Numbered from the stretch's first letter, positions 41,801 through 62,735 are shown. The stretch: DNA of 64,000 nucleotides from an uncultured virus (IMG/VR IMGVR_UViG_3300030098_005439) (IMGVR_UViG_3300030098_005439), one strand, 5' to 3'. Translations and numbers: made by a program. The notes: a model not told the origin generated them from the letters alone.

Positions 41801-44800
41801 CATGCTGAACCACCTGAAAGCTGCCAGCATCGTCTCCATCCTTGACCAACTTTACGTTTAAGAAGGGTGGGCCGATGGGTTTACCTTCTTCAATCGCCTC
41901 AGTGACCGCCTTTACCGTATCGGCAGCGCTTTCAGACGAACGGACAGGGTTGAGGCCGAGAAAATCTTGTGGCTTCATCCACACAACAAAGCCTTTGTAT
42001 GCAACGTTTTTGCTGTTTGGAACGGCGCCCATTCCATCTTTGGAGTCAAATACGACCTTACCGACCGTCTGCTGGCCCTCATAAGCTGAAGTTTCTGTTG
42101 GGACCTTTAGATCGGCAACACGAGCAGCCTTGGCACCCTTATACAGGGCCATACCACCAAGCCCAATCGCTCCCAATGCAGCAGCCGCTGACAACTCTTC
42201 CTCTTCTGCTGCGGCGGCTCCTACGGCGATTCCAGGCAATGCAACGCTGTACAGCTTTTGTGGCTTGATGACCCTGTCTCTAACTTTGTCGGTGAGTTCA
42301 AAGAAGGGGAACAATTTTTGAGACTCATAAGGATCTCCGTCAGGGTCCAAATCGATAAACGTATTGGAGCGCTTAGATTTTGTTCTTTTCTGAGCAATAC
42401 TTGGAATCAGGGTGTCATAGAAGTATTGGTTGCCCTTAAATACTTTTTCAGCTTGCTCGGCGCCTTCCGCAAGGTCTCCACCTCGTTGTTTCAAGTTTTC
42501 AAGACGCTGCAGAAACGCCCCTTCGCTACCAATTAAATCTATGGCTTCATCGCGAGGCAGTGTCACAAGGGGCGTAATTACGTCTGCACGGCTAAAGACC
42601 ACACCGTCGTAGCCACCGTCTGCAGCCTCTCGGAAGATGCGGTTAATCGCAAGTGTAAGCCATTCTTTGGTGTCTTTTAGGGGAGCGTCTGGTACTGGGT
42701 TTCCAAAAAAGGGACCAGTTGGGGTTATCATCTCCGACTGATCGATTAATTTAACCCCTTCCCTTTGGGGGTCATTTTTTGAAATAAACGCCTCTGCCTC
42801 ATCTTTACTGTCAAATGACGCGATCTCGTCACCGCTGTCTTTTTTTAGAACCTTAAACCTTTTTTCCTGTTTTCTATACCCCTGCTTCCGACCCGCCTGA
42901 TGCCAATCAGACTGGATCTCTTCTACAAACAGAACCTTACGGCCCCGGTCATCGATACGGTCCTTGGTGCGAATGTGAACCAAAACGTTGGGGATGTCGC
43001 TGTGGTGAGATTTGGTGAACTTTTCATAACCCCGTATTCCGAAAAGCTCATAAGCATCAGTTTCAGTAATCAGATCGATCGCAAATTGCTTGGCTTCTTC
43101 TGGTGTTCCAAACACTGCACGCGGACCACCAATGCCAGAACCCTCATGAAAAACTTTGTACTGACCGCGAAGGTTTTCATTTTTAGATACGTCTGCCATG
43201 TCCAACACTTCAAAACTTTCAGGCAAATCCGTAAGCTTCTTTTGTGGAACCGTCAGTAGAATCTCTTGGTAGTTGTCGCCCGCAGGAGCCGTGTAATTTT
43301 CAAATCTTGGGGAAAGGTCTTTTCGGCCTACCTCAAAGGACGCGCGCGCGTCCTTGAACTCTTTTTGGGACCGAATATATTCTTGGTACTTTGGCAACGC
43401 CTGAAACTGGCGCAATGCGACCAACCGGGTCTCGGCCTCGGGCATCTCGTTCAAAATACGGGCGATGGTGCTCAGGTTTTCGCTTTGCGCCACATCGTTT
43501 ATTATCGAGTCGTGTTCCTCTTCTGTTCTTCTACGACGCGATCTCATTTCGTTCCCTCTGCGACGTGTAAACTCCTTATACTCAGGATCAGCCCGCTTCG
43601 CGTTGATCACATTACGAGCATTCGTGATCAGTGCAGCATCCTCGGGTGTCCAATCTGATACTGAAACATTGTGATTCAGATCAATCACTCGATTCACAAC
43701 ATCTTGAACGTCTGGTGGTACATTCTCAAAACGCTCGATCCTATCGATTGCGCCAACATAGCTTACATACAGCGAATTGAAGTGGGTCGAGTTATCCGAA
43801 AACCTGTGCATTTGATCGGTAACGTCTTCGCCAGGAGCAAGTATTCTCGCTACAGCCTTCGAGTCGTCATACAAATCATTAAAAGCCTCAGTTGCCTTAG
43901 TGTTGAGATTGTCTAGCCGTTTTGCAACATCTTTTGGAATTTTTTGTGACTCATTACTGAGCCTAACCTCGTCGATCTGGACCTTGTTGTCATCCAGATG
44001 TTTGATCAACTCATCCTTGGTGATGCTCTTCTTGCCCGCTGCCTTTGCTTGCTCCACAAACTCAGCGACCTTGGTGTCAGCAATCTCAGACTTCGTCGCA
44101 CCACCGCTTCTCAACGTTGAAATAACGGCATCCACGCCCGTCTTGTTTTGAAGCTTTTCAACAGCAGCCTTTTCTAAAGTAGACTCAAATACCGGGTCTT
44201 TTGCTGCAATCGCCTCTTCTGCCTTCGACAGACTGGCTGCATCGACCTTCATTGCCGCTTTCAAGCGAGCACCGCTCAATAAATTACCAACCAACGGTGC
44301 AGCACCCAACGCAGTAGCTGCAAGCTGAATACCACCAGCAACACCCGATATACCAGCAGCAGTCAGATGCGCTGCCCTCTGTTCAGGATCTCGCACCGCC
44401 AATCGACCAGACTGAACGGCAGAAGTCACATCAGAAGTTCCTGTAATGTCCACAAGGCTAGAAACATCAGCAACGTTACGAATAGTCTCAGGATCACCCG
44501 CCATAACGTCTTCATAAACTTCGCCTGCAAACTCTTTGTACACCTCACCGCGAGCCTTCGGATCTCGAAGAAATCGCTGCTCTTCTTGCGAGGCCGCTAA
44601 ACTCAAAGCCTTCATTTGTTCGAGAAACTGCCCCTCCCAAGGCTCGGGCTTCCGCGTCAAAAATGATTCCGCCTCTTTGCGCTCACGCTCGTCCTCACGC
44701 GCATCAATTGCGGCAAACCATCGATCCGACTCGTCCTGCTCCATGCCAGCAGGCACCGTAAACCCACGATACTCAGGACGTACCGACTCTTCACGAATCT

Positions 44801-44924
44801 CATTGTATCGATCCGAAACGGAAGAATCATATTGTCCAGGTTCAACCGGCACTTTTAGAGGCTGTCCGACTTCCTTGCGAAAGCCAGCCATGCCGCGCAT
44901 CAATACGTCATCAGATGACGCCAT
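38853..44924 (-). CDS. Large polyvalent protein (EEIQSDWHQ domain, ParB-like domain, ART-PolyVal ADP-ribosyltransferase-like domain)
   Basis: VLFVEEIQSDWHQ (about 42900); VVQHEGRGR (about 41800); FGNSKVVDE.G..L.VFHGT, IYFSD, Y.NIENP, GFDGI, AF.PEQIKSATGN.GTFD (about 40600-39630). Confidence 0.75.
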   Translation of the reverse strand: MASSDDVLMRGMAGFRKEVGQPLKVPVEPGQYDSSVSDRYNEIREESVRPEYRGFTVPAGMEQDESDRWFAAIDAREDERERKEAESFLTRKPEPWEGQFLEQMKALSLAASQEEQRFLRDPKARGEVYKEFAGEVYEDVMAGDPETIRNVADVSSLVDITGTSDVTSAVQSGRLAVRDPEQRAAHLTAAGISGVAGGIQLAATALGAAPLVGNLLSGARLKAAMKVDAASLSKAEEAIAAKDPVFESTLEKAAVEKLQNKTGVDAVISTLRSGGATKSEIADTKVAEFVEQAKAAGKKSITKDELIKHLDDNKVQIDEVRLSNESQKIPKDVAKRLDNLNTKATEAFNDLYDDSKAVARILAPGEDVTDQMHRFSDNSTHFNSLYVSYVGAIDRIERFENVPPDVQDVVNRVIDLNHNVSVSDWTPEDAALITNARNVINAKRADPEYKEFTRRRGNEMRSRRRRTEEEHDSIINDVAQSENLSTIARILNEMPEAETRLVALRQFQALPKYQEYIRSQKEFKDARASFEVGRKDLSPRFENYTAPAGDNYQEILLTVPQKKLTDLPESFEVLDMADVSKNENLRGQYKVFHEGSGIGGPRAVFGTPEEAKQFAIDLITETDAYELFGIRGYEKFTKSHHSDIPNVLVHIRTKDRIDDRGRKVLFVEEIQSDWHQAGRKQGYRKQEKRFKVLKKDSGDEIASFDSKDEAEAFISKNDPQREGVKLIDQSEMITPTGPFFGNPVPDAPLKDTKEWLTLAINRIFREAADGGYDGVVFSRADVITPLVTLPRDEAIDLIGSEGAFLQRLENLKQRGGDLAEGAEQAEKVFKGNQYFYDTLIPSIAQKRTKSKRSNTFIDLDPDGDPYESQKLFPFFELTDKVRDRVIKPQKLYSVALPGIAVGAAAAEEEELSAAAALGAIGLGGMALYKGAKAARVADLKVPTETSAYEGQQTVGKVVFDSKDGMGAVPNSKNVAYKGFVVWMKPQDFLGLNPVRSSESAADTVKAVTEAIEEGKPIGPPFLNVKLVKDGDDAGSFQVVQHEGRGRMAAINSIQPDVPVPVHVFGSGAIDRGRDITPEMMQGLVDPTSNVKLLPDKKATDGKAVTPDAAWHVPDSDDYDPNYLPVGKTYRADAAMPPAATDVATVKPIQMTFAAPAKLPETPDEIEAAFSEMNRIQRGAPESAMERFRVHNIGEGPAGYLAEHIGDLTARLGHRAYGPVAEKVGKTHGSLLMGFETPPLQDVLTDKSYRKKLLDKGYERYSMMMEGGYPSMTRDEWVKKFDEKLAKYADEHRKVPVYNEVQRLANDAAVALGEQRYTDVRDSLAKLQKYIDEGEERFTARMSWVEPEFARFPGGETPPGKAVKTELPDFSAEYKQKKELDDLVRDLMAGRKAAEQADASKEAVKSTKAKPPAATDVATAGAKTEDEAVEAARLWREMGTESPYFKRKFGNSKVVDEDGEVLPVFHGTSGDFNEFRIGSSEGAFGSAIYFSDNVDDVNLNYARAEGPDIKNRVEREFDRIQDLDDFDDDDILDAAQRYMDRTESTDTELLEAIKTGNVEKLKDEFEPDLIEQIARQIVLGDENFSVMKTYVNIENPVYLDPSGTKGRTTFNLEFEYDEAGDIVDESGSVIDLLEAIDDVAYDFDNRTKLQGSPGLFNAQKLKSFIVENSDDGEIDALDIYKEIKGGEYYFQSDTGGLENTEFIRQVFENMGFDGIIADAHHFFGPRQGFAGGRIPGMADVTPGTYHYMAFNPEQIKSATGNVGTFDPSGNILKGIGVGAAVPAAAAVRSQRQEEQGNPLSEPPEYEPVSYEGGYSQAIDFSETAALVEKMIGLSNEAQDLYTQMGLIEAEYASLNEEDKIGKRGKLLAEWYDDSADKFSEAGRQLDESEYDRYLMGSDTYYDTDPKGIQGYDDVRLFVNTGYSGDPMLLDADLRASQENKQRKRLKETIGNGGPMLDMFGKSGDLNRYLYQKAKFFEHPVQTVQLNNDQKRILAKDYYNLEALKETGLISYLLYKELLGNVELV

Positions 44925-45330: not shown

Positions 45331-45705
45331 TCACTGATAAACAACGGTGACAATAACGTTGCTCGACGGATCAGATACATTTGCCAGAGCGCCACTCTGC
45401 ACACACCGCAAAGACAAGCCATTGGCGATCGTTAGACCCGTTGGAAACGAAAGCAAGCGACGAGCACCGCCAGCAATAATAAACTGATAATCGACCTCGG
45501 TAGCGTCAACGTCGATTCCACCATCTACAAGATTGTCATACAGTTTCAATACCGAAGCATCATTAGTATTTGCAGTATTGTCTACAAAGATAGAATATAC
45601 AGTGCCGGCTCCATTTGTAATATTCTGAAGCGTTGCACTACCTAAATCATCTTCGACTACAACCTTATAGGTCGTGTACGAATTGTCGAGTGTTGTTGTT
45701 GCCAT
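45331..45705 (-). CDS. Small beta-rich virion protein (paralog family A)
   Basis: YKV...NITNGAGTVYSI.VDN...LKLYD...FPTGL...GLS. Confidence 0.65.
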   Translation of the reverse strand: MATTTLDNSYTTYKVVVEDDLGSATLQNITNGAGTVYSIFVDNTANTNDASVLKLYDNLVDGGIDVDATEVDYQFIIAGGARRLLSFPTGLTIANGLSLRCVQSGALANVSDPSSNVIVTVVYQ

Positions 45706-45761
45706 GCTCTCTCCAACAAAATGTTCTTGTCAACATTACCGCATATACAACTAAAAGCAAA

Positions 45762-45796
45762 CAAAGAAAAAGACCCTACCAGAGCAAGTAGGGCCT
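45762..45796 (-). terminator. Rho-independent terminator
   Basis: AGGCCCTAC-TTGCTCTG-GTAGGGTCT then TTTTCTTTG. Confidence 0.75.
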
Positions 45797-45839
45797 TTAA
45801 CAAACAGACAGGAGAGTCAAACAATGAAACATGACTCCC
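45762..45839 (-). ncRNA. Candidate ~75-nt small RNA
   Basis: Own promoter, 5' hairpin GGGAGTCA/TGACTCTC, CTCTCCTGTCTGTTTGTT tract, terminator hairpin and T tract. Confidence 0.55.
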
Positions 45840-45843
45840 GAAA

Positions 45844-45872
45844 ACTATAGCACTATGCGATCACCACGGCAA
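45844..45872 (-). promoter_or_regulatory. sigma70-type promoter overlapping the end of rusA
   Basis: TTGCCG-N17-TATAGT with extended TGn. Confidence 0.6.
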
Positions 45873-46397
45873 ATCATGAAGGAAGCCGTCGTCCTCTTCT
45901 TGGAAAACTTCCATCAATGTCTTGCCCATTGTTCGCGATGCCGTGTCCCACCAGCCCTCAACAGGCTCTATGCCTGCTGGTCTAAGACGCAAACACAGCC
46001 TCGGGCCACGATCACGCTCAGAATAGAAGTCCTGTATCGTTACCTTGACCGCCAATGCGTCATCTCGCAGTACCCCTGCCATCACCAGCGCATCCAGCGC
46101 ACATTTGCAAATGTTGTCTGCATCTGGCTTAGATTGCTTCCAAATCACGTGATCTGGGTCTTTTTTGCGAAGTAAACGCTTCGGACGGTGAGAAAATGCC
46201 GCTATTTCGACCTCTACAGGCTCGTCAAGTGGCGCTTTTCGCCAAACACTTGTCATCACCATTGCCGCAGAACGCTCCCAATCTGCCGTCTTTTTCGGTG
46301 TATATAGGCGCACTTTGCCGCCAATAGACGCTCCCCGTGGCCTTCCTTTGCCTATCGGGTCGCCAGGAACCTCAACCATGTATATCCAATCACTCAT
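45861..46397 (-). CDS. rusA: RusA-family Holliday junction resolvase
   Basis: PG.P.GKGRPR, YTPKKT..WE, KPDADNI.K..LDAL..G.L.DD. Confidence 0.9.
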   Translation of the reverse strand: MSDWIYMVEVPGDPIGKGRPRGASIGGKVRLYTPKKTADWERSAAMVMTSVWRKAPLDEPVEVEIAAFSHRPKRLLRKKDPDHVIWKQSKPDADNICKCALDALVMAGVLRDDALAVKVTIQDFYSERDRGPRLCLRLRPAGIEPVEGWWDTASRTMGKTLMEVFQEEDDGFLHDLPW

Positions 46398-46704
46398 ATT
46401 CTTCCTCATGCCACTCCATTAAATGATTCCTCAACCTCTCTATCGACGGAACACCCTCCATTTGAGAACTTGCCATATGCAACTCGTCAACCACCACAAA
46501 CAACGCACGGATTAGCTGACGATTATCCTTTCTCTTCTCCAGATCGTCCAAGGCCCACGGAATGTCCAATCTTGATGGCACCCTCTTGCACCAGTGCGGA
46601 ACTGAACGCCATTCATCCTGCTTGCTTGCCTTGTCAGACAACCACGAGTACCACTCACCAATAGCAACGCGTAGGTTGCGAGATACAAAAGATGGATCAA
46701 GCAT
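46390..46704 (-). CDS. Hypothetical protein
   Basis: TAATG coupling with the upstream gene. Confidence 0.6.
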   Translation of the reverse strand: MLDPSFVSRNLRVAIGEWYSWLSDKASKQDEWRSVPHWCKRVPSRLDIPWALDDLEKRKDNRQLIRALFVVVDELHMASSQMEGVPSIERLRNHLMEWHEEEYE

Positions 46705-47906: not shown

Positions 47907-48284
47907 TCACACGGTCCACCCCCACGCGCGCACGGTAGACAACGCGCCCCGCATAGCACCACGGGCAACCCCGGCCACGCTACGCGCTACCCCCTGAACA
48001 CCACGGGCCACGCTACGCGCAACGCGCGCCACGCTACGCGATACACGCGCAACAGCAGAGCCCACGGGGGGGGTCACAACCTCGGCCACAACTGGAACCT
48101 CCACCACGGGGGCAACCTCGGCCACTCCATCAAGGGGGGCGGCTATGGTCACCACGCGGGGGGCTCCAGGGATGCGAAGTTGTGGAACCTTCGACCACGC
48201 AACGAACCGACCCGTAACAGAGCACCGCGCACGTTGGCGGGGCGCGTCTGCCGAGAGGTTCGAGAATGCGAGTGCGAAAGTCAT
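47907..48284 (-). CDS. Leaderless hypothetical protein with VARSVAR repeats
   Basis: ATG lies 7 nt after a -10 box; RCSVTGRFV motif; amphipathic basic repeat C-terminus. Confidence 0.5.
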   Translation of the reverse strand: MTFALAFSNLSADAPRQRARCSVTGRFVAWSKVPQLRIPGAPRVVTIAAPLDGVAEVAPVVEVPVVAEVVTPPVGSAVARVSRSVARVARSVARGVQGVARSVAGVARGAMRGALSTVRAWGWTV

Positions 48285-48290
48285 AAACAC

Positions 48291-48348: not shown

Positions 48349-48445
48349 TTTTTTCTTCAATGATTTCAAGCACTTACGAGGTATGGTGCATTTTTTTTGC
48401 TAAAAAAGTGGTTTTTTTTCTTCAATGATTTCAAGCACTTACGAG
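48349..48445. repeat. Perfect 32-bp direct repeat x2 with IHF-like site
   Basis: TTTTTTCTTCAATGATTTCAAGCACTTACGAG at 48349-48380 and 48414-48445; TTTCAAGCACTTA is one mismatch from WATCAANNNNTTR. Confidence 0.85.
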
Positions 48446-49436: not shown

Positions 49437-49744
49437 CCTGCGATTAGTCGCGGTTGACATGCCAACTACCGCAAACGTCGGATATCCCGGTTTTAACGGG
49501 GCTTTTCGATGTATTTCGTACAGATAGGGCGGGGGTCTTACCCCTGATTTTTACGCCTTGCCCCGGTGTTGGTACGGTTGCCATGTCAACACCAGGACCG
49601 AATAACCCGCTTGAAAGGCTGCATATCACGTAGCCGGTGGGTGTTTTCATTCGGGGGTTTGAGAGGTGGCGCGGACCCATCCCGCATAAAATCCCCGCCA
49701 TATTCGCGTGTATTGGTACGAATGACCGAACCTTACCCCCCTTG

Positions 49745-50026
49745 TACCCTAACCTCTGCCCCAACCTATCGCAGAGGTTAGGGCACCGAATAGCCCGCCT
49801 TTAAGGTACGATATCGGTCACTGCCCTAACCTACCCTAACCTCTGACCCAACCTTTTGAACCTCGCGGATTTTCTCGACTGTCTCGACCTTCTCTCTCTA
49901 CTATATTGTATTACCTATATATATCTTTTATCTAATAGGTTAGGGTAGGTTAGGGCAATAGAGAATAACCGAGGTTAAACCGGGCTTTTCAATCTGCCCC
50001 AACGTAGGGGCACCACTGCCCCAACG
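49745..50026. other. Putative replication origin (iterons around an AT-rich core)
   Basis: About 9 CCC(T/C)AAC(C)T-type repeats in both orientations; perfect 21-bp inverted repeat 49822-42/49937-57 flanking a TA-rich core. Confidence 0.6.
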
Positions 50027-50759: not shown

Positions 50760-51010
50760 CCCTCAACTTTCGCAGAAAACCCCTTGTTCGTTTTGAATCC
50801 GTAACAGCTACGTGGGCTATCGAGCATGCCGGCCCACGCCAGTTTCACTTGTACATGAACGCCAAAGACCCCGGCCGATGGCTGGATGAGGACGGCCGAA
50901 CCGTGGAGTATGGACCGTTCAAGACCCAAGCGAGCGCCAAGAAACAAGCCATGAAAATCAATGCGGAGCGCCTAAATCAATCCCTAAAATCAGCCCTGGA
51001 GCAATCATGA
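50756..51010 (+). CDS. Early hypothetical protein
   Basis: CTGGAGCA junction; GPFKT..SAKK. Confidence 0.7.
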   Translation: MTLNFRRKPLVRFESVTATWAIEHAGPRQFHLYMNAKDPGRWLDEDGRTVEYGPFKTQASAKKQAMKINAERLNQSLKSALEQS

Positions 51011-53284: not shown

Positions 53285-53317
53285 CATACCAGACACACAC
53301 AGACAAACAGGAGATAA

Positions 53318-53530
53318 GTGATGCCTATATTTTTTGAAGAATGGTGCAAGGTTAGCGGTGTACCAAACCAGTTTGAGTCTACGTCACCAAGCCACTGCCT
53401 GTACGGTTACCGCCGTGCAGTCAAGCGGTACGAGAGAGAGGTAGTGGACGCCTACGTCCGCGAGCCCGTGGATACAATCAAACGTCGTCAGCGTATAGCT
53501 GAACGTCAGGCAGCTAATGGGGGTGAGTGA
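53318..53530 (+). CDS. Early hypothetical protein
   Basis: ACAAACAGGAG RBS; ends GGE. Confidence 0.65.
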   Translation: MMPIFFEEWCKVSGVPNQFESTSPSHCLYGYRRAVKRYEREVVDAYVREPVDTIKRRQRIAERQAANGGE

Positions 53531-53841
53531 TGAGCAACAACTGGAGCACAAAACGTGTAACCAAAAAAGAAATCAACGACCTTTGGTATGGAGGGTACAA
53601 GTCCAAGGGAGACTATTTTCTGGAACGGGATGGCTCTGCCATGATCCTGTACCTTTACTCAAGGGATTGGAAGTCCGTTGAAAAACTTTCTACCGCTACG
53701 GGCCCTGACGGAAAGCTTTTTCATATCGAAGAATCAGAGAGGCGTGGTGGATACGGTCGCGGGCCTATTCAAGTGGAGTCATGGCACAAATACACTACCT
53801 ACCCACTTGCCTATCGACTGACGCGTAAGGGAGGTGAGTAA
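53530..53841 (+). CDS. Early hypothetical protein
   Basis: TGATG coupling; ends GGE. Confidence 0.7.
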   Translation: MSNNWSTKRVTKKEINDLWYGGYKSKGDYFLERDGSAMILYLYSRDWKSVEKLSTATGPDGKLFHIEESERRGGYGRGPIQVESWHKYTTYPLAYRLTRKGGE

Positions 53842-54260
53842 TGAGCCCTACCGCAAGATTCAAAGAGTATATCAACGGTAGCGATGTAGTCATCGACCTA
53901 CGGCCTGGACAGACCTTGACCCACGTAAAGTATGAGCCTACCGATGAGGGATGGGACCGCACTGTACACACATGGCATTACGATGCCGATACCAAAGTCA
54001 TCACAGTCAACTACTTCAATGAGGGACGCGACTGTGATGGGTACATGTCAACCCACTACGAACGCGAATGCTCGGTTGACCGGCTACGCTCTCGAACAGT
54101 GAAGCATCCGACTGGTGGACGGTGGGAGCCATTCACCGACTACGATGGCACCACTGCCCACGAGTGGGTGACCACTTGGGAAGAACAGACAGGCTGGCCT
54201 GACTGGAGAGAGGTCGGCTACGAGTACTACGACCAGAACGCCCGAGCGATGGGCTACTAA
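53841..54260 (+). CDS. Early hypothetical protein
   Basis: PTDEGW, GRDCDG, C-terminal ARAMGY. Confidence 0.75.
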   Translation: MSPTARFKEYINGSDVVIDLRPGQTLTHVKYEPTDEGWDRTVHTWHYDADTKVITVNYFNEGRDCDGYMSTHYERECSVDRLRSRTVKHPTGGRWEPFTDYDGTTAHEWVTTWEEQTGWPDWREVGYEYYDQNARAMGY

Positions 54261-54281
54261 ACTTTACCTATGCTGACACAC

Positions 54282-54311
54282 TTGACAGCCAATACCAAAC
54301 AGGTGTATAAC
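54282..54311 (+). promoter_or_regulatory. Promoter of ardC
   Basis: TTGACA-N18-TATAAC. Confidence 0.6.
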
Positions 54312-54341
54312 CCTAATGAGCAAACAAACCGGAGATTCAAC

Positions 54342-55295
54342 ATGGCTAAAAAACCAACATTCAACACGCACCAAGTCATCACCGATATCATCCTCGCTTC
54401 GCTTGAAAAGGGCGTACAGCCCTGGCGCAAAGGCTGGACCGCATTGGGTGGCGCCTTGAGCCGTCCCGTCAGTGGAGGTACAGGCAACCCATACAACGGT
54501 ATCAACGTGATTCTGCTGTGGGCGGCACAGTCCGAGCGTGGCTACCACTCCGATACTTGGCACACGTACAAGGGTGCCCAAGGCAAGGGCGGTCAGGTAC
54601 GAAAGGGTGAGAAGGGTACACGAATCGTCAAATGGTTGTTCCTGCCAATCAAAGAGAAGGGACAGGTGAAGCTTGATGCCAACGGTGAGCCCGTGACCTT
54701 CGCAAAGATGAGGCTGTATACAGTCTTCAACGCTTGCCAGATTGATTGGGCAGAGGGTAGCGAGCATGCCCCTGGTCCTGCTCCAACAGTGGAGGAACAC
54801 GATGGTTCTCAGGCCGGTGACGAGTACAAGGATGCCAAAGTCATTCTGGATTCATGGGCCGAAGAGGTCACTATCATGCATGGCGGCGACTCGGCATTCT
54901 ATCGACCATCAGATGACTTCATTCAACTGCCCACCTTTGAACAGTTTGACAGTGAAGCCGAATACTTCTCGACTGCCTTTCATGAGGCGATTCACAGCAC
55001 AGGTCACAGTACACGTCTGAACCGCTTCAAAAAGGAACGCAAGGGTAGCTACAAGCAAGCCTACGCATTCGAGGAACTTGTAGCAGAGTTGGGTGCGGCA
55101 TTCTTGTGTGCTGATGCTGGTATCAACCAGCCAGAAGAACCACGCGAGGACCACGCGCAGTACTTGGCCCACTGGCTCGAAGTACTCAAGGGTGACCCGA
55201 AGGCCATCGTGTCTGCGGCATCCAAGGCAGAGAAGGCAGCGAAGCTTGTAATGACAAAGGCAAGCGAGGCCGGTCAACAGCAGGCAGCAAAGTAA
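54342..55295 (+). CDS. ardC: ArdC-family antirestriction / ssDNA-binding protein with zincin domain
   Basis: ITD.I...LE.G..PW, YNGIN..LLW, W.TYK...GG.VRKGEKG, VFN..Q, HEAIHSTGH, YAFEELVAELGAAFLC. Confidence 0.92.
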   Translation: MAKKPTFNTHQVITDIILASLEKGVQPWRKGWTALGGALSRPVSGGTGNPYNGINVILLWAAQSERGYHSDTWHTYKGAQGKGGQVRKGEKGTRIVKWLFLPIKEKGQVKLDANGEPVTFAKMRLYTVFNACQIDWAEGSEHAPGPAPTVEEHDGSQAGDEYKDAKVILDSWAEEVTIMHGGDSAFYRPSDDFIQLPTFEQFDSEAEYFSTAFHEAIHSTGHSTRLNRFKKERKGSYKQAYAFEELVAELGAAFLCADAGINQPEEPREDHAQYLAHWLEVLKGDPKAIVSAASKAEKAAKLVMTKASEAGQQQAAK

Positions 55296-55389
55296 TCCGG
55301 GAGAGGGAAGCAGTTTGGCGGTCTGCTTATCAAAACCGCCCCACCTTAGTCACACCTGACAAACTTTACACAACCAAAGAGAGGCTACA

Positions 55390-55509
55390 ATGCTGAGTGA
55401 GATTCAAACCATGTTCACAGAACTGCCGTGGGTGTCATTGTGGATGACTGCGGCGCTACTCGGAGTAGTCGAACTACTCCACATTCAACAAACAGGAGAT
55501 CAATCATGA
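55390..55509 (+). CDS. 39-aa membrane peptide (not in ORF track)
   Basis: GAGG RBS; MLSEIQTMFTELPWVSLWMTAALLGVVELLH...; ATGA coupling. Confidence 0.5.
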   Translation: MLSEIQTMFTELPWVSLWMTAALLGVVELLHIQQTGDQS

Positions 55510-55832
55510 CACCACAAGAAACTATTTCATACCTACGTTCTGTAATCGAACACGTACTAATCGCTTCCGAAGACGGCGGAACCATGAACGATATTGATTG
55601 GGACCTCCTACGGACAGCACTTCTGCAAACAGAAGCATTCGCTACCGAGAGAGAAAAGCTACTGACAGCCGCTTTAGAGAAGATCGCGGACTATCCCGTG
55701 AATGTCGATGGGTACAACAATACCTCGGCAGTACGCATGAGATTCGCGGCATGTAAGACCATCGCGAGAAACGCCCTGAAGGGCGAAGAAACAGTGTTCT
55801 ATACCAATCAATCAACGCAAGGAGGTAAGTGA
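55506..55832 (+). CDS. Early hypothetical protein
   Basis: ACAAACAGGAG RBS; ALEKIA...IARNAL. Confidence 0.7.
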   Translation: MTPQETISYLRSVIEHVLIASEDGGTMNDIDWDLLRTALLQTEAFATEREKLLTAALEKIADYPVNVDGYNNTSAVRMRFAACKTIARNALKGEETVFYTNQSTQGGK

Positions 55833-55996
55833 TGGAAGACTTGCTATCAAAGATTCTGAACAACATCGCAACGATCGACGAACTGAAAAAACGAAACGAC
55901 GGCGACACGATGCAAGTCGTGATCGATAACCTGTGGGCGCTCGTCAAGTCCGAAAGACAAAAACTATGGATTCAATCAGTCATGGAGGTGAAGTGA
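55832..55996 (+). CDS. 54-aa hypothetical protein (not in ORF track)
   Basis: MEDLLSKILNN...MEVK*, coupled at both ends. Confidence 0.65.
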   Translation: MEDLLSKILNNIATIDELKKRNDGDTMQVVIDNLWALVKSERQKLWIQSVMEVK

Positions 55997-56505
55997 TGAA
56001 AAGATGGCAAGGGCCGGGACATGCACACGCAGAGGCCCGACGAGCCCATGAACAGGCTGAAGATGCCCGCTACGAACGATGGAAGGAAAACAATCCAGAG
56101 TGCCAAAGGGCTATCAGTGAACATTCTACGTGCAATCATCGTGAACATGTAGACGACATGACCGATGTGGGTGGAGAGATTTGGTGTGCCCATTGTTTCG
56201 ATACGCATGCATTCAACTGTGAAGTATGCGGCGAGGTTCACTCTAATGAGTACTCGGCAAACAGAGAACTGACGTTGGATGAGTCCGTATGCACATACTG
56301 TGATGAGAAGTGCGCAACGAACAAAACCCACCATCACACTCCAGTCGGAATCAGTATCGGCCACCTGAAGTACATACTGTGGACGATGGAGAACGCTGCA
56401 CAAGACAAGCCCTATGAGGGTACGCAACCGGGCAGCGCAAAGAAATGGTTGAGAGAAAGCATTGACCTAATCAAACAATCAATACCCAAAGAGGACGGTG
56501 AGTGA
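55996..56505 (+). CDS. Cys-rich Zn-finger protein
   Basis: CAHC, CEVC, CTYC. Confidence 0.7.
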   Translation: MKRWQGPGHAHAEARRAHEQAEDARYERWKENNPECQRAISEHSTCNHREHVDDMTDVGGEIWCAHCFDTHAFNCEVCGEVHSNEYSANRELTLDESVCTYCDEKCATNKTHHHTPVGISIGHLKYILWTMENAAQDKPYEGTQPGSAKKWLRESIDLIKQSIPKEDGE

Positions 56506-56903
56506 TGGGACGGTGGAGTGGCGAGTCAACTAAATACAAATACGACACCGACAAAATCGGTACATCAACAAAACAACTGAGTCACCGTCATGGTGGCCGC
56601 AACAAACAGGAGCATAAAATGTCTTTACACGTAACACAACAAAGCGAGATCCCTGACGCACCTTTCTATGTCACCACAACCGACACATTCATGTCGGGAT
56701 GGGGAAGGGCAGAGAACCTTGTAAACCGTTTGATTCTCCCTTGTGAGAGTTCGACTGAAGCAAACAGAGTGGCGGACTACGCTCGCGGTCGCAGTGATCA
56801 AAAGAACGTCCGCATCTGCACAACCAAGCCACGGATTCGCCCTGGCACATACACACAGGTCATGGACCCCGAGAAGTCTACGGCTTGGTACGGGAGAGAG
56901 TAA
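56505..56903 (+). CDS. Early hypothetical protein (second in-frame start near 56619)
   Basis: YVT.TD.FMSGWG.A motif; internal ACAAACAGGAG RBS. Confidence 0.7.
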   Translation: MGRWSGESTKYKYDTDKIGTSTKQLSHRHGGRNKQEHKMSLHVTQQSEIPDAPFYVTTTDTFMSGWGRAENLVNRLILPCESSTEANRVADYARGRSDQKNVRICTTKPRIRPGTYTQVMDPEKSTAWYGRE

Positions 56904-56906
56904 ATC

Positions 56907-57152
56907 ATGGACAACCAACATAGGGAAGCAATCTTATTGGCTTACTCAAACTATCTTCCGATACAGCCGTCACCAGCGCGCAGGCTCACTGAGCAAACCC
57001 CACACCATGCTCAACGTGTTGGCTGTCCAACGTGTGATGCCGCTATCGGAGAATCTTGCGTGTCTTTGAGTGGCACGGGAAAAACGCTCAAGCGTTCTCA
57101 CAATGAGCGCATAACCCTTTCACTTATTTACAAACCAATCAGGAGATATTGA
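56907..57152 (+). CDS. Small Zn-finger protein
   Basis: CPTC.A..GE.C...H..R. Confidence 0.65.
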   Translation: MDNQHREAILLAYSNYLPIQPSPARRLTEQTPHHAQRVGCPTCDAAIGESCVSLSGTGKTLKRSHNERITLSLIYKPIRRY

Positions 57153-57153
57153 A

Positions 57154-57438
57154 ATGATTATCTATGTACTGGACGACGGAGAGACGTGGACCCTGAGTGA
57201 GCCCACGGCTGTAGCAATCACGGACGAGCAACTGACGCGCATCGAAGGCGGTGAGAAAGTATACAGTGTGGTCCCAAACTGGAGCGAAAGCCCCGAACCC
57301 GATTGGGATGAGCAACAGGATGACGATGCCGACGACTTTTTCATTCAAGCTGGCATCGCTGCCCGAGAAGCACTGAAGGAAATCAAGAGAGACTACACAA
57401 AGAGCATCGTGGATGCTCAGAACAAAGGAGGTGAGTGA
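57154..57438 (+). CDS. Acidic early protein
   Basis: CAGGAG RBS; ends GGE. Confidence 0.7.
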   Translation: MIIYVLDDGETWTLSEPTAVAITDEQLTRIEGGEKVYSVVPNWSESPEPDWDEQQDDDADDFFIQAGIAAREALKEIKRDYTKSIVDAQNKGGE

Positions 57439-57614
57439 TGCTCGGACCAGATTGGGAACGTGAGGTTGAATACGAACCGGGCAAGGTCCATCGGTTCACA
57501 AGTATGTGGGATCGCTGGTGCTACGAATGTGCAGCAGCGGACTACTGTATGCCCATCGAGGAATACATTCGACGTGAGAAGGACGGTTGGTTTGAAGACG
57601 AGGGAGGTGAGTGA
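57438..57614 (+). CDS. 58-aa hypothetical protein (not in ORF track)
   Basis: MLGPDWERE...EDEGGE*, between two identical junctions. Confidence 0.7.
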   Translation: MLGPDWEREVEYEPGKVHRFTSMWDRWCYECAAADYCMPIEEYIRREKDGWFEDEGGE

Positions 57615-57985
57615 TGCCCTATAGATATGTATGGCCAGAGGAAGCATTCGAGGTACGCATCCAGTGTACTGAAGAACAAATACAACAGCATTGTGACGCG
57701 GCGCCTGAGAACGACCGTCGTGACTTCGATGATCGTGGTGGGCTTCAGATACCGGTGTACCATGTATACAAGAACGATAACATCTATGATCGTTTGACTT
57801 ATTGGTATACGCTCGACAAAACCGAGTGCGATACCTACGAGTTTGATGTTCGCGATATTCCGACATGGTGGAACTGTTCTTCAGAAAGTCCAGAGAATCA
57901 TCAAGACTGCATCCAAGAAGCATTGAACGATGGCGTCATTGAGTTTGAGGGATTGCTACTGAAGATACACAAGATGGCTGAGTGA
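57614..57985 (+). CDS. Early hypothetical protein
   Basis: Junction coupling; FDVRDIP. Confidence 0.7.
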   Translation: MPYRYVWPEEAFEVRIQCTEEQIQQHCDAAPENDRRDFDDRGGLQIPVYHVYKNDNIYDRLTYWYTLDKTECDTYEFDVRDIPTWWNCSSESPENHQDCIQEALNDGVIEFEGLLLKIHKMAE

Positions 57986-58025
57986 TCCCCATGTCGGGCC
58001 TATCCACCTGACTCCGTATTCCTTA

Positions 58026-58556
58026 ATGAAGCACTACCGCTTCACCAACACCGAGATCATCATGACCGATACCAAAAACCAAAACATTCAGCAATACGTC
58101 AACCTACGCACGTGTATCGAACACTGGATAAAGGTAAACCCTAACACCTTTATGGGTCCATACCGCCCACACATGTATACTCTTGAAGGCTGGCTTGGAT
58201 TGTTAGATGTTTGCGGTAACCTCGAATACCCAACCTCCGACCTTGCCTCATCGTGGTGGGACGACGGTGGCGATCCGCTATTAGACATAGAACTACTTGT
58301 AAGTCCCGCACACGCGAATCATGCTCACATACGTTTGTTCGCATCTTACGCAGACCCGTTTCTACGGGCACTGCGGGCACGTAAACTGACCGACAATCAC
58401 GTCGCCCACACCGTATATCTATATCTTCACGACTGTAAGATAGCAGCAGCTAAACACGAATACGAAGCCAACCATCGCATTGAACACGGCAACGATTGGG
58501 CTCGCTTCGATATGAACACTACAACGACTTTGCATAGCCGGAATGACAATGACTAA
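58026..58556 (+). CDS. Early hypothetical protein (start may be 58062)
   Basis: 176-aa ORF in gene order. Confidence 0.6.
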   Translation: MKHYRFTNTEIIMTDTKNQNIQQYVNLRTCIEHWIKVNPNTFMGPYRPHMYTLEGWLGLLDVCGNLEYPTSDLASSWWDDGGDPLLDIELLVSPAHANHAHIRLFASYADPFLRALRARKLTDNHVAHTVYLYLHDCKIAAAKHEYEANHRIEHGNDWARFDMNTTTTLHSRNDND

Positions 58557-58746
58557 TAAAAACCCAAAGTGGGACCGGGAATCCATCGAAGCATTTAACA
58601 GTGCTCATCCCATAACTCCCAAAGATCAAGCCTCTTTTGATCGCGCACGCATTCGACTGGCACAACAGCTTGGAGCCAGTGCAGACGATATTGCAGCGAT
58701 CAAATCAGAGATTGAAGCGAACACTAACCAACAATCAACAGGGTGA
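58543..58746 (+). CDS. Early hypothetical protein
   Basis: Overlapping ORF in gene order. Confidence 0.55.
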   Translation: MTMTNKNPKWDRESIEAFNSAHPITPKDQASFDRARIRLAQQLGASADDIAAIKSEIEANTNQQSTG

Positions 58747-58917
58747 AGTGTGGGACGCCACGCAACATCTATAGGAGGTGCATCATGGTCTAAGTCATAG
58801 TGCCGGTAAGGGTGAGGGGCCTGGATTACTCACCCAAGTAGACCTTTTATTGTGACCCATGTCCAAACGGAACCAAGCGCCGGTTCTATTCAATGAGCCT
58901 ACAACACAGGAGAATGT

Positions 58918-59130
58918 ATGACTCGCTTACCAAACAGAGCAGCCTTTCCAAGTTTCGACTTGGCCCTTGGCCCGCACGACCCTTCCAAACTTCAGCACCG
59001 TCACCCGTTTACAGAGTGGGTGAAGCCGGTGCCAGAGACAATCCCCCCAATGAATGAACCACAACAAAGTGAATGGATTCGCCTGAACGATAGCGTGGTT
59101 CGCAGAGCAAACACAGGAGAGCAAAAATGA
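58918..59130 (+). CDS. Early hypothetical protein
   Basis: ACACAGGAG RBS. Confidence 0.6.
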   Translation: MTRLPNRAAFPSFDLALGPHDPSKLQHRHPFTEWVKPVPETIPPMNEPQQSEWIRLNDSVVRRANTGEQK

Positions 59131-59327
59131 CTGAGCAAGAAATCAAACAACTAAAGAGCATGCGGAGACTATTAGAGCAGTGGTTTAAACCACAGCCCAC
59201 GGTTGCGATCGGCAACGCAGAGAACGTTCAATCGTTACCTGAAGAATCTCGTCTTGCGTTTCAGCAGCAGCTTGAAGCAATCAACAAGGTTCTCGAAAGG
59301 GCAGAGGCAGAGGACAGCAAAGCATGA
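59127..59327 (+). CDS. Early hypothetical protein
   Basis: ACACAGGAG RBS; ATGA coupling. Confidence 0.65.
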   Translation: MTEQEIKQLKSMRRLLEQWFKPQPTVAIGNAENVQSLPEESRLAFQQQLEAINKVLERAEAEDSKA

Positions 59328-59536
59328 CACCAAACAAAGAGACACCCATTGGAACACCACTGAAGTCTACCGTGAAGGGATGGGGTAAAGGCCCATTCGT
59401 TTACATGGGCAACGGCAGAGGCGGACAGACAATCATAGTCGCAACGAAGAAGGATGGATTGCAGCAAGCGCGCGCATCTGACTTCTCCATCGATTCGATT
59501 GCCGCCAAAGCCATTGGTGACTTTATTATCAAGTAG
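59324..59536 (+). CDS. Early hypothetical protein
   Basis: ATGA coupling. Confidence 0.65.
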   Translation: MTPNKETPIGTPLKSTVKGWGKGPFVYMGNGRGGQTIIVATKKDGLQQARASDFSIDSIAAKAIGDFIIK

Positions 59537-59539
59537 CGG

Positions 59540-59568
59540 TTGACTATGGCTTTACTTGCCTGTAAGGT
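59540..59568 (+). promoter_or_regulatory. Promoter
   Basis: TTGACT-N17-TAAGGT. Confidence 0.6.
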
Positions 59569-59603
59569 CATACCTACCCTACCTCAACACACTGGAGCAG
59601 AAG

Positions 59604-59903
59604 ATGAACAAAGCAGAGCAGTTTAGATTACCGGTGAGCCCGCGCAACATTTCAGTTGAGTTGGTTCGAGAGGTTGAAGACGAAGATACAGGCGAGGTTG
59701 TCGCGGAACACATCATCGAGGTATTTGGTCGGTTCCTTCCTGCGGAGCCCAATGTGGGTCTTGGTCCCCACATTGAGGTTCTGTCAGCGCACCGACAAGA
59801 CAGGGACGTTCGCGTTCCTGTGGAGTTAGAAGATTGGGAGGTTGACACGTTGCTCGACCTTTATCAAGAGCAGTTGCGGACAGAACTTGACCGTGACATT
59901 TGA
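59604..59903 (+). CDS. Acidic hypothetical protein
   Basis: CTGGAGCA RBS. Confidence 0.7.
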   Translation: MNKAEQFRLPVSPRNISVELVREVEDEDTGEVVAEHIIEVFGRFLPAEPNVGLGPHIEVLSAHRQDRDVRVPVELEDWEVDTLLDLYQEQLRTELDRDI

Positions 59904-59940
59904 TTTTTTATGGCATACTTGACGAACACAGGAGAACAAA

Positions 59941-60228
59941 ATGAGCATCAACCAATGTAATAAATGCTACAACCCCATCGGAAACAACATCACAGCCCTT
60001 CACAACATTCAAGTAATGAAGGCCGTCATGCAAGATTCGATGGTGCGTGCGGACGAAGCCGATGACAACGCACGTAAAGTGATGATTCTGGAATCAACAA
60101 TGAACCACATTTTAGAAAACATCGAGAGAGATTTTGGTGAAGCGTGGTCGATTCACAAACAACAAATGAAAGAGTTGATGGAGTCCCTGAGAGATCAGGG
60201 AATCATCAGCGATGTAGGAGGTGAGTGA
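59941..60228 (+). CDS. Hypothetical protein
   Basis: ACACAGGAG RBS; ends GGE. Confidence 0.7.
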   Translation: MSINQCNKCYNPIGNNITALHNIQVMKAVMQDSMVRADEADDNARKVMILESTMNHILENIERDFGEAWSIHKQQMKELMESLRDQGIISDVGGE

Positions 60229-60503
60229 TGAGTCAGACAAATGAACTAAGGTTCATACGGGTAGATCGATGCTTCCACGACCAGTATGGATGGGTACGGC
60301 CTGATCGCACAACTGAATGGCTAAATGTTAGTCTCATTCAATCCGTAGGCATCGATCCTGAGGTCAAAAACGATGACGATCCTGACTTGAAATACACAGC
60401 AATCTGTATGCTTGGTGGCTTTAGAAACGACACTATCGAAGTATTCCATACAGACGAAACCCCCGAGTCATTTTTAAAAAGAGTCCACGAACTTTGGAGG
60501 TGA
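60228..60503 (+). CDS. Hypothetical protein
   Basis: Junction coupling. Confidence 0.7.
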   Translation: MSQTNELRFIRVDRCFHDQYGWVRPDRTTEWLNVSLIQSVGIDPEVKNDDDPDLKYTAICMLGGFRNDTIEVFHTDETPESFLKRVHELWR

Positions 60504-60506
60504 GTG

Positions 60507-60863
60507 ATGGGACTAAAAAGTCAGCGACATTTGAGAACCGCCATCAATGCGCGGTTGCGAGAGCATGGGAAGTGGAACCCACGCAAGCACCATGCGGAGT
60601 TTGCTTTCGGAACACTCAGCGGCAAACAGTACACGAGCAACAATCAACCAGGCGACTTGGGTTGGGACGGTCGGAGCGGATTTGGTCGAGACTTTCCGAT
60701 AATGGAAGGTGACGTGCTGCACTTCACGATTAGTTGGAGGGAGGACATGTATGAGACTGCCGAGTTCGACAAACACGGCGGAGACTGTTGGGTAAGTGAA
60801 CCAGCGCTTCATATTGGAAAACGTCCAGACGGATCGTGGATGGTCATCGTGGGAGGTGAGTGA
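60507..60863 (+). CDS. Hypothetical protein
   Basis: Junction motif at both ends. Confidence 0.7.
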   Translation: MGLKSQRHLRTAINARLREHGKWNPRKHHAEFAFGTLSGKQYTSNNQPGDLGWDGRSGFGRDFPIMEGDVLHFTISWREDMYETAEFDKHGGDCWVSEPALHIGKRPDGSWMVIVGGE

Positions 60864-61243
60864 TGATTACCGACACAGAGTTTTTCAGTAAAAATCATTG
60901 GGACTTCGATGATGAAGAACAAATGAAAGAGCGTGACTATTGGCTGTCACTACCTCGATTCAGGAATGGTGACAGACCACATCTTGACTTTCCCAATGTG
61001 GAGATTCAAACCGCAGGGAAAATCAAAGTCGGTGAGGTTCATCACAGGTCTTTTGTTCGTTCCGACTACTTAGAGCGTGAGGTGGGTGGTGGCTACACTC
61101 AAGAGGTTGCAATCTTTGAGATTACCCGCATTGGCGATGGGTTCATATCTCAAGAGTCCCTTGCCACATTATCGAAAGAGGATCTTCAACAAGTCATTAA
61201 GTGGTGCAACGCTGCACTAAGAGTGAACGATGGAGGTGAATGA
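60863..61243 (+). CDS. Hypothetical protein
   Basis: Junction coupling; ends GGE. Confidence 0.7.
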   Translation: MITDTEFFSKNHWDFDDEEQMKERDYWLSLPRFRNGDRPHLDFPNVEIQTAGKIKVGEVHHRSFVRSDYLEREVGGGYTQEVAIFEITRIGDGFISQESLATLSKEDLQQVIKWCNAALRVNDGGE

Positions 61244-61252
61244 AGATCACAC

Positions 61253-61281
61253 TTGACACACTTGGGCCAACCAAGTAATGT
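61253..61281 (+). promoter_or_regulatory. Promoter of the replication/regulation module
   Basis: TTGACA-N17-TAATGT. Confidence 0.65.
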
Positions 61282-61305
61282 ACTCAAACCATACAGGAGA
61301 ATGTA

Positions 61306-61590
61306 ATGAGCAACAACGTTACAAAACTTAGAAAGCGTAAAGCAAACCAGAAAAGAGAATGGTCATGGCCGTCATTCATATCGGCATGGCAAGAGTCAGA
61401 GTCATACGAAGATGTATTAGAGCAGCTTGGCTTTGAAGATACACCACAAGAGCGCAGCTTCATTGGTGGCAAGGCTTCATACGCAAGAAAAAAGGGCGTG
61501 CCCTTGAAAAAGTTCAAGCGTAAGCGCAGAGGATCTAAAATCGATTGGAACGGACTTGCGGACTTAGCAAAGTCAAAGAGTGAATCGTGA
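61306..61590 (+). CDS. Basic, probable DNA-binding protein
   Basis: FISAWQ.S.S.EDV...LG...AS..RKKGVPLK HTH-like pattern. Confidence 0.65.
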   Translation: MSNNVTKLRKRKANQKREWSWPSFISAWQESESYEDVLEQLGFEDTPQERSFIGGKASYARKKGVPLKKFKRKRRGSKIDWNGLADLAKSKSES

Positions 61591-61713
61591 TTGAATATAC
61601 AGAGGTCCTCTCTTTTATAAGAAACGCAAACCACATATTTTGGGCCGTGAGCCTTAATAGAGCGATTGGCAAACTTAACAATCGTTGGTACACAAATCGA
61701 TTGGAGGTAGTAA

Positions 61714-62217
61714 ATGTCAAACATTGAAGACGCAGAGGGGTCATACAAAGTCTTCCTGGCGATCAAAAGTGATTCAGACCTGAATGAAAAGTTTCGCTGC
61801 ACTCGTGACGGAGTCATGTACTACAGCGGCAAAAAGATGACAGAACCTGACTTCTCACAAGTGTCAGTCTACTTGGCACAAAAGTGGAAAGTAGTGTGCT
61901 CGAAGGAAGAGTTGAAGTCCGGTATCATGGCAGCGTCTAAGCGCATCGAGCCTCAACTTATCTACGGAACAAACTTGGCCGAAGACTTCAGACTGAAGGT
62001 CAAAGAGTTCTTAGAGCACAACCCGCCATCGTGCCACAGGTATGACATTACAACTGATGTAGTGGCTGAGTACGTTGATCCTGATGGATGGCAAGAGCAG
62101 AGGCGACTGACAGAAATGAAAGTAGCAAAAGCCCTAAAAGAGCAAGGGCTTCAAAAGGTGCGAGTAACGCACAAGGGAGAAAGAAAAATGCGCTGGTTCC
62201 CGATCACGGGATCGTAA
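61714..62217 (+). CDS. Protein resembling the N- and C-termini of VapE/VirE helicases, with no P-loop
   Basis: C-terminal KVAKALKEQGLQKVR...G.R..RW winged-helix-like; no Walker A. Confidence 0.55.
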   Translation: MSNIEDAEGSYKVFLAIKSDSDLNEKFRCTRDGVMYYSGKKMTEPDFSQVSVYLAQKWKVVCSKEELKSGIMAASKRIEPQLIYGTNLAEDFRLKVKEFLEHNPPSCHRYDITTDVVAEYVDPDGWQEQRRLTEMKVAKALKEQGLQKVRVTHKGERKMRWFPITGS

Positions 62218-62240
62218 TCATAAACAAACAGGAGAGTACT

Positions 62241-62735
62241 GTGGAACTCACATCACAAGAAATCATTGCGCTTACAAAAGCGTTCAACACGAAAGCAGTC
62301 TCGATTGCAAAACGAGACATTGACAATAACTCTGAAATCGACGTGAACCTCGTCGTTAAGCTTGCAGGCAAACTCAAGCGGGGCCAAAAGTCTAAGCCAG
62401 TCAAAGCTACCTCCACAATCCCGTGGAAAGTAGCCCTGGCTCTCTTTGCCAAGCGCTCTGGGTTCACCCGTGAGCAAACTGCAAAGGTGCTGCTTGAGGC
62501 GGTGACCTTTGCACTTGAAACCAACTCCGACAAGAAGACAGAACTTCTTGAAGAAATGGGAGTTGGGGATGCCCTGGCCATGCTGGACCGAGAGGTCTTT
62601 GAGAAGCTACCTAAGAAGACCCGTGATGGAAACATCACCTTCGAGGTGGCAATGGTCGAGGCTGTTCGAGAGCCAATGTTGGTGGCTGACCAAGACACTT
62701 TGACCCTTGGGGAAGGGGAAGAAGTGGCGAAGTAA
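62241..62735 (+). CDS. Hypothetical protein
   Basis: ACAAACAGGAG RBS with GTG start. Confidence 0.7.
   Translation: MELTSQEIIALTKAFNTKAVSIAKRDIDNNSEIDVNLVVKLAGKLKRGQKSKPVKATSTIPWKVALALFAKRSGFTREQTAKVLLEAVTFALETNSDKKTELLEEMGVGDALAMLDREVFEKLPKKTRDGNITFEVAMVEAVREPMLVADQDTLTLGEGEEVAK

Follow-up and report, generated by a model that had tools for sequence, protein, structure and literature searches.

A conserved candidate small-RNA gene behind rusA in a group of uncultured phages, with complementarity to phage start regions

Trans-acting sRNAs of the Hfq type in Gram-negative bacteria are transcribed from a promoter of their own and consist of a stem-loop at the 5´ end, an unpaired U-rich stretch and a Rho-independent terminator with a U-tail, and their seeds cover Shine-Dalgarno (SD) regions. 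Among phage RNAs, P22 sar is a cis-antisense RNA that blocks a ribosome-binding site (RBS), c4 has one target, located in its own operon, and the lambda 6S RNA is 194 nt long. According to the main text of a review, c4 of phages P1 and P7 is an antisense RNA that covers the RBS of the ant mRNA and blocks its translation (PMC12197685); in that main text the term 'early gene' is absent and 'ribosome binding' occurs once, for c4. Lambda 6S and StxS, as far as PMC7547250 describes them, are short transcripts from the late promoter PR´ that end at tR´, and StxS of Stx phages illustrates that such a short RNA can regulate in trans. In phage T4, as outlined in PMC3014915, RegB cuts GGAG within the SD regions of early mRNAs, and RegA competes with ribosomes on ~30 mRNAs.

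Here we describe a locus in an uncultured virus (IMG/VR IMGVR_UViG_3300030098_005439), analyzed as a 64,000-nt stretch of DNA (the window) that is part of a phage of ~73 kb. Like c4 and sar, as far as these are described in the sources used, the candidate is a small structured phage RNA with a stretch complementary to the RBS of phage mRNAs. Unlike them, it has several candidate targets, encoded on the opposite strand at a distance of 7-17 kb; no gene lies opposite the RNA, the antisense ORF is not conserved, and neither a sequence relation to c4 or sar nor an Rfam match was found. With lambda 6S and StxS, on the same partial descriptions, it shares a promoter that looks constitutive, a short transcript and a strong terminator directly ahead of late genes. 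The differences are that a search of upstream proteins gave no Q-like gene, that the terminator is followed by a separate promoter-like motif, and that the RNA would be ~70 nt long. By analogy with what these sources report, the RNA would work most like the RBS-blocking phage RNAs and would resemble 6S and StxS in position. The class-wide shut-off of early genes through their start regions by RegB and RegA, again as outlined in that source, has the logic proposed here, as a functional analogy only; the T4 factors are proteins, whereas an RNA is proposed here. In layout the candidate resembles the Hfq-type sRNAs, with a seed that is almost a generic anti-SD followed by a G/U tract, so that its specificity is doubtful.

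The unit between rusA and the first late gene

Genes from 1 to ~50 kb of the window lie on the minus strand and include those for the large terminase, the major head protein and internal virion proteins. The stretch from 46 to 50 kb holds small genes without assigned function, in a block that closes with a RusA-like resolvase. From 50.1 kb to the window end the genes lie on the plus strand and are small ORFans plus ArdC; in the nearest record (G001, 98% identical across the locus), a primase, helicases, a RecE/YqaJ-type exonuclease, RecT and an HNH protein are encoded beyond this block. We infer that the plus-strand genes are early because ArdC and a repeated sigma-70-like promoter family (CACTTGACA at 50033, 54279, 55353 and 61250) are present.

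Several repeats and domains were noted in these blocks. Plus-strand repeats of the form C(A/T)CTTGACA...CTTTACC (families D5 and D7), found also at 48290, probably are early sigma-70 promoters; the one at 54279, TTGACA-17-TGTATAAC, lies just upstream of ardC. Between the divergent minus- and plus-strand blocks, positions 49681-49974 contain many copies of GGTTAGGG/CCCTAACC, and 23-nt repeats at 49745 and 49832 (family D18, 96% identical) are part of this array, which resembles iterons and may mark an origin or serve the binding of a regulator. A 214-nt gap holds two perfect direct repeats of 32 nt (D6; 48349-48380 and 48414-48445), 65 nt apart. Overlapping 21/12-nt periodic repeats, ACGCGC.ACG...CCACG, at 47943-48084 (D3, D15, D20) fall inside a minus-strand ORF (47907-48290) and might encode a repetitive peptide or else form a non-coding array. 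Three genes downstream of the RNA (38853-44924, minus strand) lies the gene of a polyvalent protein of 2023 aa with an ADP-ribosyltransferase (ART-PolyVal) domain, and the ArdC of the same phage carries an MPTase-PolyVal domain.

The 22 sequencing runs listed as containing DNA of this phage were all DNA runs, mostly marine or viral metagenomes. A blastn search with 1.2 kb gave no match among GenBank phages, and the exact terminator pattern matched no genome in a search of bacterial genomes; the best tblastn matches of TerL were in jumbo Pseudomonas phages, at ~28% identity. A gap of 155 nt, from the rusA stop (45861) to the ATG (45705) of a 124-aa gene whose product had no match in protein family searches, contains the putative RNA unit. 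The features of the locus are:

45861..46409, minus strand: gene for a RusA-like Holliday-junction resolvase (Pfam RusA, E = 4.7e-24; PHROG 140)
45867..45872, minus strand: putative -35 box TTGCCG, overlapping the last RusA codons (Leu-Pro)
45844..45852, minus strand: putative extended -10, TGcTATAGT (TG at 45852-45851, TATAGT at 45849-45844)
45812..45839, minus strand: 5´-terminal hairpin, GGGAGUCA-loop-UGACUCUC
45808..45816, minus strand: anti-Shine-Dalgarno-like core CUCUCCUGU, the complement of ACAGGAGAG
45799..45811, minus strand: single-stranded G/U-rich linker C UGUCUGUUUGUU, the candidate seed (unpaired probability at least 0.9)
45763..45798, minus strand: intrinsic terminator with a 12-bp stem (45798-45769), loop UUGCUC and a U-tract
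45733..45760, minus strand: conserved motif TTGCTT-16-TAATGT after the terminator (TTGCTA-TATTGnnGATATAAGG-TAAAGT in relatives)
45703..45714, minus strand: RBS GGAGAGAG and ATG of the first gene after the RNA unit (124 aa)

The original prediction of a minus-strand promoter, 5´ hairpin and intrinsic terminator proved accurate in all its sequence details. The promoter reads TTGCCG-17-TGcTATAGT, with 9 of 12 consensus matches plus the TG, and looks like an ordinary one of the sigma-70 type. Downstream of it the RNA sequence is GGGAGUCAUGUUUCAUUGUUUGACUCUCCUGUCUGUUUGUU, with a predicted 5´ end at ~45839-45837, and UUUUUCUUU stands directly 3´ of the terminator stem. A 77-nt RNA folds at -26 kcal/mol (z = -5.4), a value equalled by none of 200 shuffles. 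With a start at 45839, the predicted fold places part of the anti-SD in the hairpin stem.

Conservation of the unit among relatives

The rusA gene, as the upstream neighbor, served as the anchor for collecting the loci of relatives, of which there were 95 (15 from viral contigs and 80 from metagenomes). A covariance model gave one match per locus in 65 of them, each directly downstream of RusA and on the same strand, counting the 36 distinct sequences of its seed, which match by construction; the 30 loci without a match include L015, L017-L019, L105 and L108. The window likewise contains one match, at 45768-45839 on the minus strand. A search of the whole window against Rfam returned no match at gathering thresholds; the best sub-threshold match was NsiR1 (16.5 bits against a threshold of 39).

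A promoter of the form TTGnnn-16/17-TAnnnT is present in 36 of 39 distinct variants. At 10 of 11 loci its score, calculated with approximate position weights, exceeded the 99th percentile of a positional null, and at the same ten the -10 ends 4-6 nt ahead of the first base of the hairpin. T1, A2 and T6 of the -10 hexamer are fixed and positions 3-5 are free (TACCTT, TAATCT, TACTCT, TATATT, TACACT and TAAGAT, among others). The -35 is either TTGCCN within the last RusA codons or TTGACN past the stop codon.

The RNA always starts with GAG or GGAG, paired with CUC or CUCC. Two hairpin forms occur, GAGYC...GRCUC (22-38 nt) and GGAGA-N5-UCUCC (15 nt), and a compensatory change distinguishes GAGTCA/TGACTC (the window type) from GAGCC/GGCTC (L065) around the same loop. 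Across the alignment, 91.1% of cells are paired, compared with at most 65.6% in slid controls, and changes on both sides were found in 8 of 18 pairs; 0 of 500 shuffles reached the observed value. The terminator stem has both-side changes in 5 of its 12 pairs, and its loop is kept. Among the 36 aligned sequences, the TCC of the core is invariant or nearly so; CUCUCC(U)GU is kept irrespective of which part of it pairs, and the UGUUUGUUUG-type tract behind it is also conserved. The CUCC core is missing in some variants (CUCAUCC, CUCGUCC, UCUCUCUG), and variant seeds such as CUCAUCCUG exist among the relatives.

One lineage (L008, 3062-3150; L069, 1277-1350) departs from this pattern. Its -10 lacks T6 (TACACC or TACATC), its GAG/CUC hairpin is gone and its CUCUCC has become CUCUCU, with the terminator and the motif behind it intact; the model gives it 37-38 bits, whereas the 51 best-scoring matches reach 57-86 bits. 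To judge from these sequences, the RNA gene seems to have decayed here as a whole.

The comparative evidence strongly supports the prediction of a discrete small RNA that is transcribed from a promoter of its own and ends at its own terminator, and we estimate a probability of about three in four that the locus is a genuine small-RNA gene, that is, a transcription unit. Two other candidates were rejected: a minus-strand mini-ORF (ATG at 45832, 11 codons) lacks, upon inspection, a start codon in some relatives, L011 and L012 among them, and the GGGGCTTCGGCCCC hairpin, considered as a repeated early cassette, has only one copy.

The boundary with the late genes

The promoter and terminator of the RNA stand immediately upstream of the late genes. 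In all close relatives, the sequence behind the terminator follows the pattern TTTGTTTGCT(A/T)T...(A/G)TAT(A/G)(A/C)GGTAA(A/T)GTTG, with an inverted repeat TATAT-N5-ATATA in the spacer in most of them. This motif lies ~35 nt ahead of the first late ATG at constant spacing, is kept in L016 despite an insertion of ~45 nt after the terminator and, with the terminator, is the most conserved part of the locus. GGTAAWGTTG was found once in the window, so no promoter class can be defined. The motif is probably the promoter of the late operon, with an operator.

This position suggests another reading of the unit, as a promoter-proximal terminated leader of the late operon. Its promoter would then be the late promoter, and read-through of the terminator would require a phage factor that modifies RNA polymerase, as at lambda PR´-6S-tR´ or at N/nut sites, the short RNA being a by-product or having a second job. 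A promoter, ~70 nt and a strong terminator immediately before the late genes and after the replication/recombination module are what such a leader would look like; the hairpin differs sharply between close relatives and the rest is constant, as in specificity elements, and there is a precedent in lambda PR´-6S-tR´ and StxS, as far as these are treated in PMC7547250. The fixed-spacing promoter-like motif behind the terminator in close relatives, which survives the L016 insertion, argues against it. So does the L008/L069 lineage, where the upstream promoter and the hairpin are degraded and the terminator and downstream motif are intact, so that the late genes seem independent of the RNA promoter; this pattern fits an accessory RNA gene upstream of an independent late promoter and argues against a PR´-tR´ type of leader. 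No antiterminator (Q-like) family was found at E ≤ 1 among the nine upstream proteins, and the adjacent gene is rusA. In a nut-like comparison, in which the hairpin is followed by (G/A)CUCUCCUGU, only GCUCU resembles boxA, and the conserved string as a whole seems unlike the boxA consensus. We consider a late leader unlikely, though worth keeping in view.

Sequestration in cis of the RBS of the downstream 124-aa gene by CUCUCC, upon read-through, was rejected by inspection because that RBS varies (GGAGAGAG, GAGGGC, GAGAGGG, GGAGACAG) without a matching change in the RNA. Even without repression by the RNA, the locus, through its terminator and the probable late promoter, marks the middle/late boundary of a phage group that lacks a cultured member.

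Complementarity to early-gene start regions and possible function

The RNA was originally predicted to be complementary to a stereotyped RBS of early genes. Eight ACAGGAG starts were indeed found where the prediction had placed them, with GGAG at 53310, 55495, 56609, 58909, 59116, 59931, 61296 and 62231, and the ArdC start (GGAG at 54331) carries the variant ACAAACCGGAGA. Apart from ArdC, the products of these genes are small and without assigned function.

53303..62244, plus strand: ACAGGAG-type start regions (class B), eight plus that of ArdC; candidate targets

ACAGGAG occurs ten times on the plus strand of the window, at the eight early-gene starts, at the RNA site (45808) and at 38669, and only twice on the minus strand. 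With a weight matrix built from the nine starts, the RNA site scored 16.2 bits, the best match outside a start on both strands (the next scored 13.5 and 12.2) and inside the leave-one-out range of the true class-B members (7.7-21.1 bits).

Targets were ranked by the cofold binding energy between the full-length RNA and the -35 to +15 regions of 91 starts. As the original prediction had it, class-B starts rank near the top, with seven of the nine class-B and ArdC starts among the best 10 of 91, and early plus-strand starts bind better on average than minus-strand starts (-10.1 versus -6.6 kcal/mol, p = 0.004). The expected enrichment of targets held for contiguous matches and not for energy. 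At least eight contiguous bases complementary to the 41-nt RNA body were found at 10 of the 91 starts, against a mean of 2.4 for shuffles, and this count was reached by 1 of 300 shuffles, or by 3 of 300 with CTCTCC held fixed. Of 60 shuffled versions of this body with matched composition, 24 equalled or exceeded it in mean binding energy over the five best targets, and 45 gave at least as many targets at -13 kcal/mol or lower; shuffling frees the hairpin, and any G/U-rich RNA pairs with A/C-rich leaders. A degenerate 16-nt pattern occurred in at least 120 stretches of viral contigs, mostly unrelated ones, and its complement is a common RBS leader.

The early genes have three stereotyped start families. 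Class A (50405-53094) comprises seven copies of CCCTGGAGCAA / CCCTGGAGCAAnCATG; class C (53514-61246) comprises ten copies of GGAGGTGAGTGATG, in which the upstream stop overlaps the start (translational coupling); and class B (53303-62244) has the form ACAAACAGGAGA and is the sole family complementary to the RNA linker. The idea that the RNA explains why the RBS is stereotyped finds little support, classes A and C being equally uniform without complementarity to the linker. Class-B leaders mostly follow promoters or intergenic gaps, and short unstructured A/C-rich leaders are expected in such places regardless of the RNA.

Among the relatives, two genes recur as predicted targets. In four complete relatives, with 83-115 starts each, the recT start ranks 4, 1, 1 and 2 and the exonuclease start 40, 2, 4 and 1, and the two are the best of 45 ortholog groups. 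The four ranks of recT cannot be counted as independent, as the RNA is inherited and so is the RBS. The YqaJ/RecE-like exonuclease and RecT genes lie outside the window, at 27539-29268 of G001 (L049, 7539-9268). Since the RNA gene directly follows that for the resolvase RusA, all three genes concerned (rusA and those for the exonuclease and RecT) have recombination functions. In the exonuclease leader of G002, a duplex of 16 bp with two G-U pairs is possible, as read from the predicted structure. What the sequences establish is the conserved anatomy of the unit and the presence of complementarity.

Co-variation of the RNA with the RBS class, expected under the original prediction, was not seen. 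The ACAGGAG class comprises eight called starts (plus ArdC) in the window but 4, 1 and 2 in G002, G003 and G004, all of which keep the RNA despite the smaller class. Swapping RNAs between genomes revealed no own-genome advantage: the RNA of G002 scored -21.0 with 10 genes on G001 targets, and that of G001 itself -17.0 with 6 genes. Contiguous matches to recT, counted by eye, are 8, 11, 10 and 11 nt for own pairs, plus 8 in G009, and equal or longer, up to 12 nt, for mismatched pairs.

We propose the following scheme. A sigma-70-type promoter overlapping the end of rusA would start transcription at the base of the 5´ hairpin, and a strong intrinsic terminator, which would also close the rusA operon, would end the RNA after ~70 nt; the late operon would start from its own promoter-like motif just downstream. 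The RNA would expose (CUC)UCCUGUnUGUUUGUU, an extended anti-SD followed by a G/U tract, and would pair in trans with those phage mRNAs in which an A/C-rich leader continues into an SD of the ACAGGAG type, thereby blocking ribosome entry. Its targets in this phage would be the ~8-9 small early genes next to promoters or behind intergenic gaps; for the whole family, the exonuclease and recT genes would be the only consistent candidates. From these sequence features we infer expression of the RNA, its pairing with mRNAs, and repression as the outcome.

A conserved phage sRNA that pairs in trans, through an anti-SD and G/U seed, with ACAGGAG-type leaders is the reading we tentatively favor, while giving it less than even odds. 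Silencing of the early class in trans, the core of the original prediction, is weakly supported: the ranking speaks for it, and the shrinkage of the class to 4, 1 and 2 members in relatives undercuts it. Its extension to a global early-to-late switch is not favored and appears doubtful, since an ordinary sigma-70-type promoter gives no sign of late timing. A broader version, in which the RNA of the family shuts down in trans every phage mRNA with a ACAAACAGGAG-type leader, as an RNA counterpart of RegB and RegA, appears improbable from the data at hand. We are as skeptical of the target set that such a class-wide shut-off would imply, namely, in all members, the exo-recT pair and, in this phage, the early ORFans close to promoters. 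If it were true, phages would time gene classes by RNA pairing at shared RBSs, and to our knowledge such timing is so far known only for proteins, for example RegB and RegA of T4. The regulatory RNAs of lytic and environmental phages are, as far as we know, barely charted, and the RNA gene described here is cleanly delimited and supported by covariation; it occurs in dozens of contigs from marine phages and matches no Rfam family.

The conservation of the RNA, while the ACAGGAG class ranges from one to eight phage genes, and the lack of co-evolution with phage targets could also mean that this is a real phage sRNA directed at host mRNAs or a host RNA-binding protein, with the match to phage starts a side effect of its seed. 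Known phage sRNAs often act on host genes, as far as two sources describe them (PMC7547250; bioRxiv 10.1101/2024.10.31.621285). On the other side, recT and exo are consistent candidates within the phages. We rate host targets as a possible but rather unlikely reading.

Less probable again is a passive operon boundary, at which the terminator merely ends the rusA operon and the conservation reflects a recombination junction beside the late promoter; this reading also holds that the promoter-like hexamers arise in part from the conserved C-terminal codons of RusA. The -35 TTGCCG does fall within conserved Leu-Pro codons, and the terminator and downstream motif are the most conserved elements. 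However, the -10 lies outside the gene, T1, A2, T6 and the distance to the hairpin are kept, some relatives place a TTGACN -35 after the stop codon, and the 5´ hairpin covaries, whereas a plain 3´ UTR needs no promoter-locked hairpin.

A remnant or live start of a plus-strand gene or mini-ORF is scarcely credible: the RBS, followed at a suitable distance by an ATG, does open a reading frame of eight codons, as had been predicted, and scores above all other non-start sites with the class-B matrix, but 27 of 39 variants lack a start codon 4-12 nt behind the antisense SD-like motif, the other variants have unrelated ORFs of 1-68 codons, and no plus-strand transcription unit reaches the locus because all neighboring genes are on the minus strand. 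With this 8-codon ORF not conserved, the relatives do not bear out the remnant gene start that the original prediction had named as its counter-explanation.

Apart from the linker pairing favored above, a second contact is possible on sequence grounds, through the terminator loop with class A starts. The loop and its 3´ flank, UUGCUCUGG (45769-45798), can pair with CUGGAGCAA of class A (9 bp, two of them G-U), for example at the starts at 52241 and 52877, and in G004 UUGCUCUGG can pair with ACCGGAGCAA (10 bp, one G-U). A score of at least 7.5 is reached by 12 starts in the window, the figure for shuffles being 4.7 (fraction 0.04); G002, G003 and G004 give a weaker signal or none. The terminator loop is conserved although its stem covaries.
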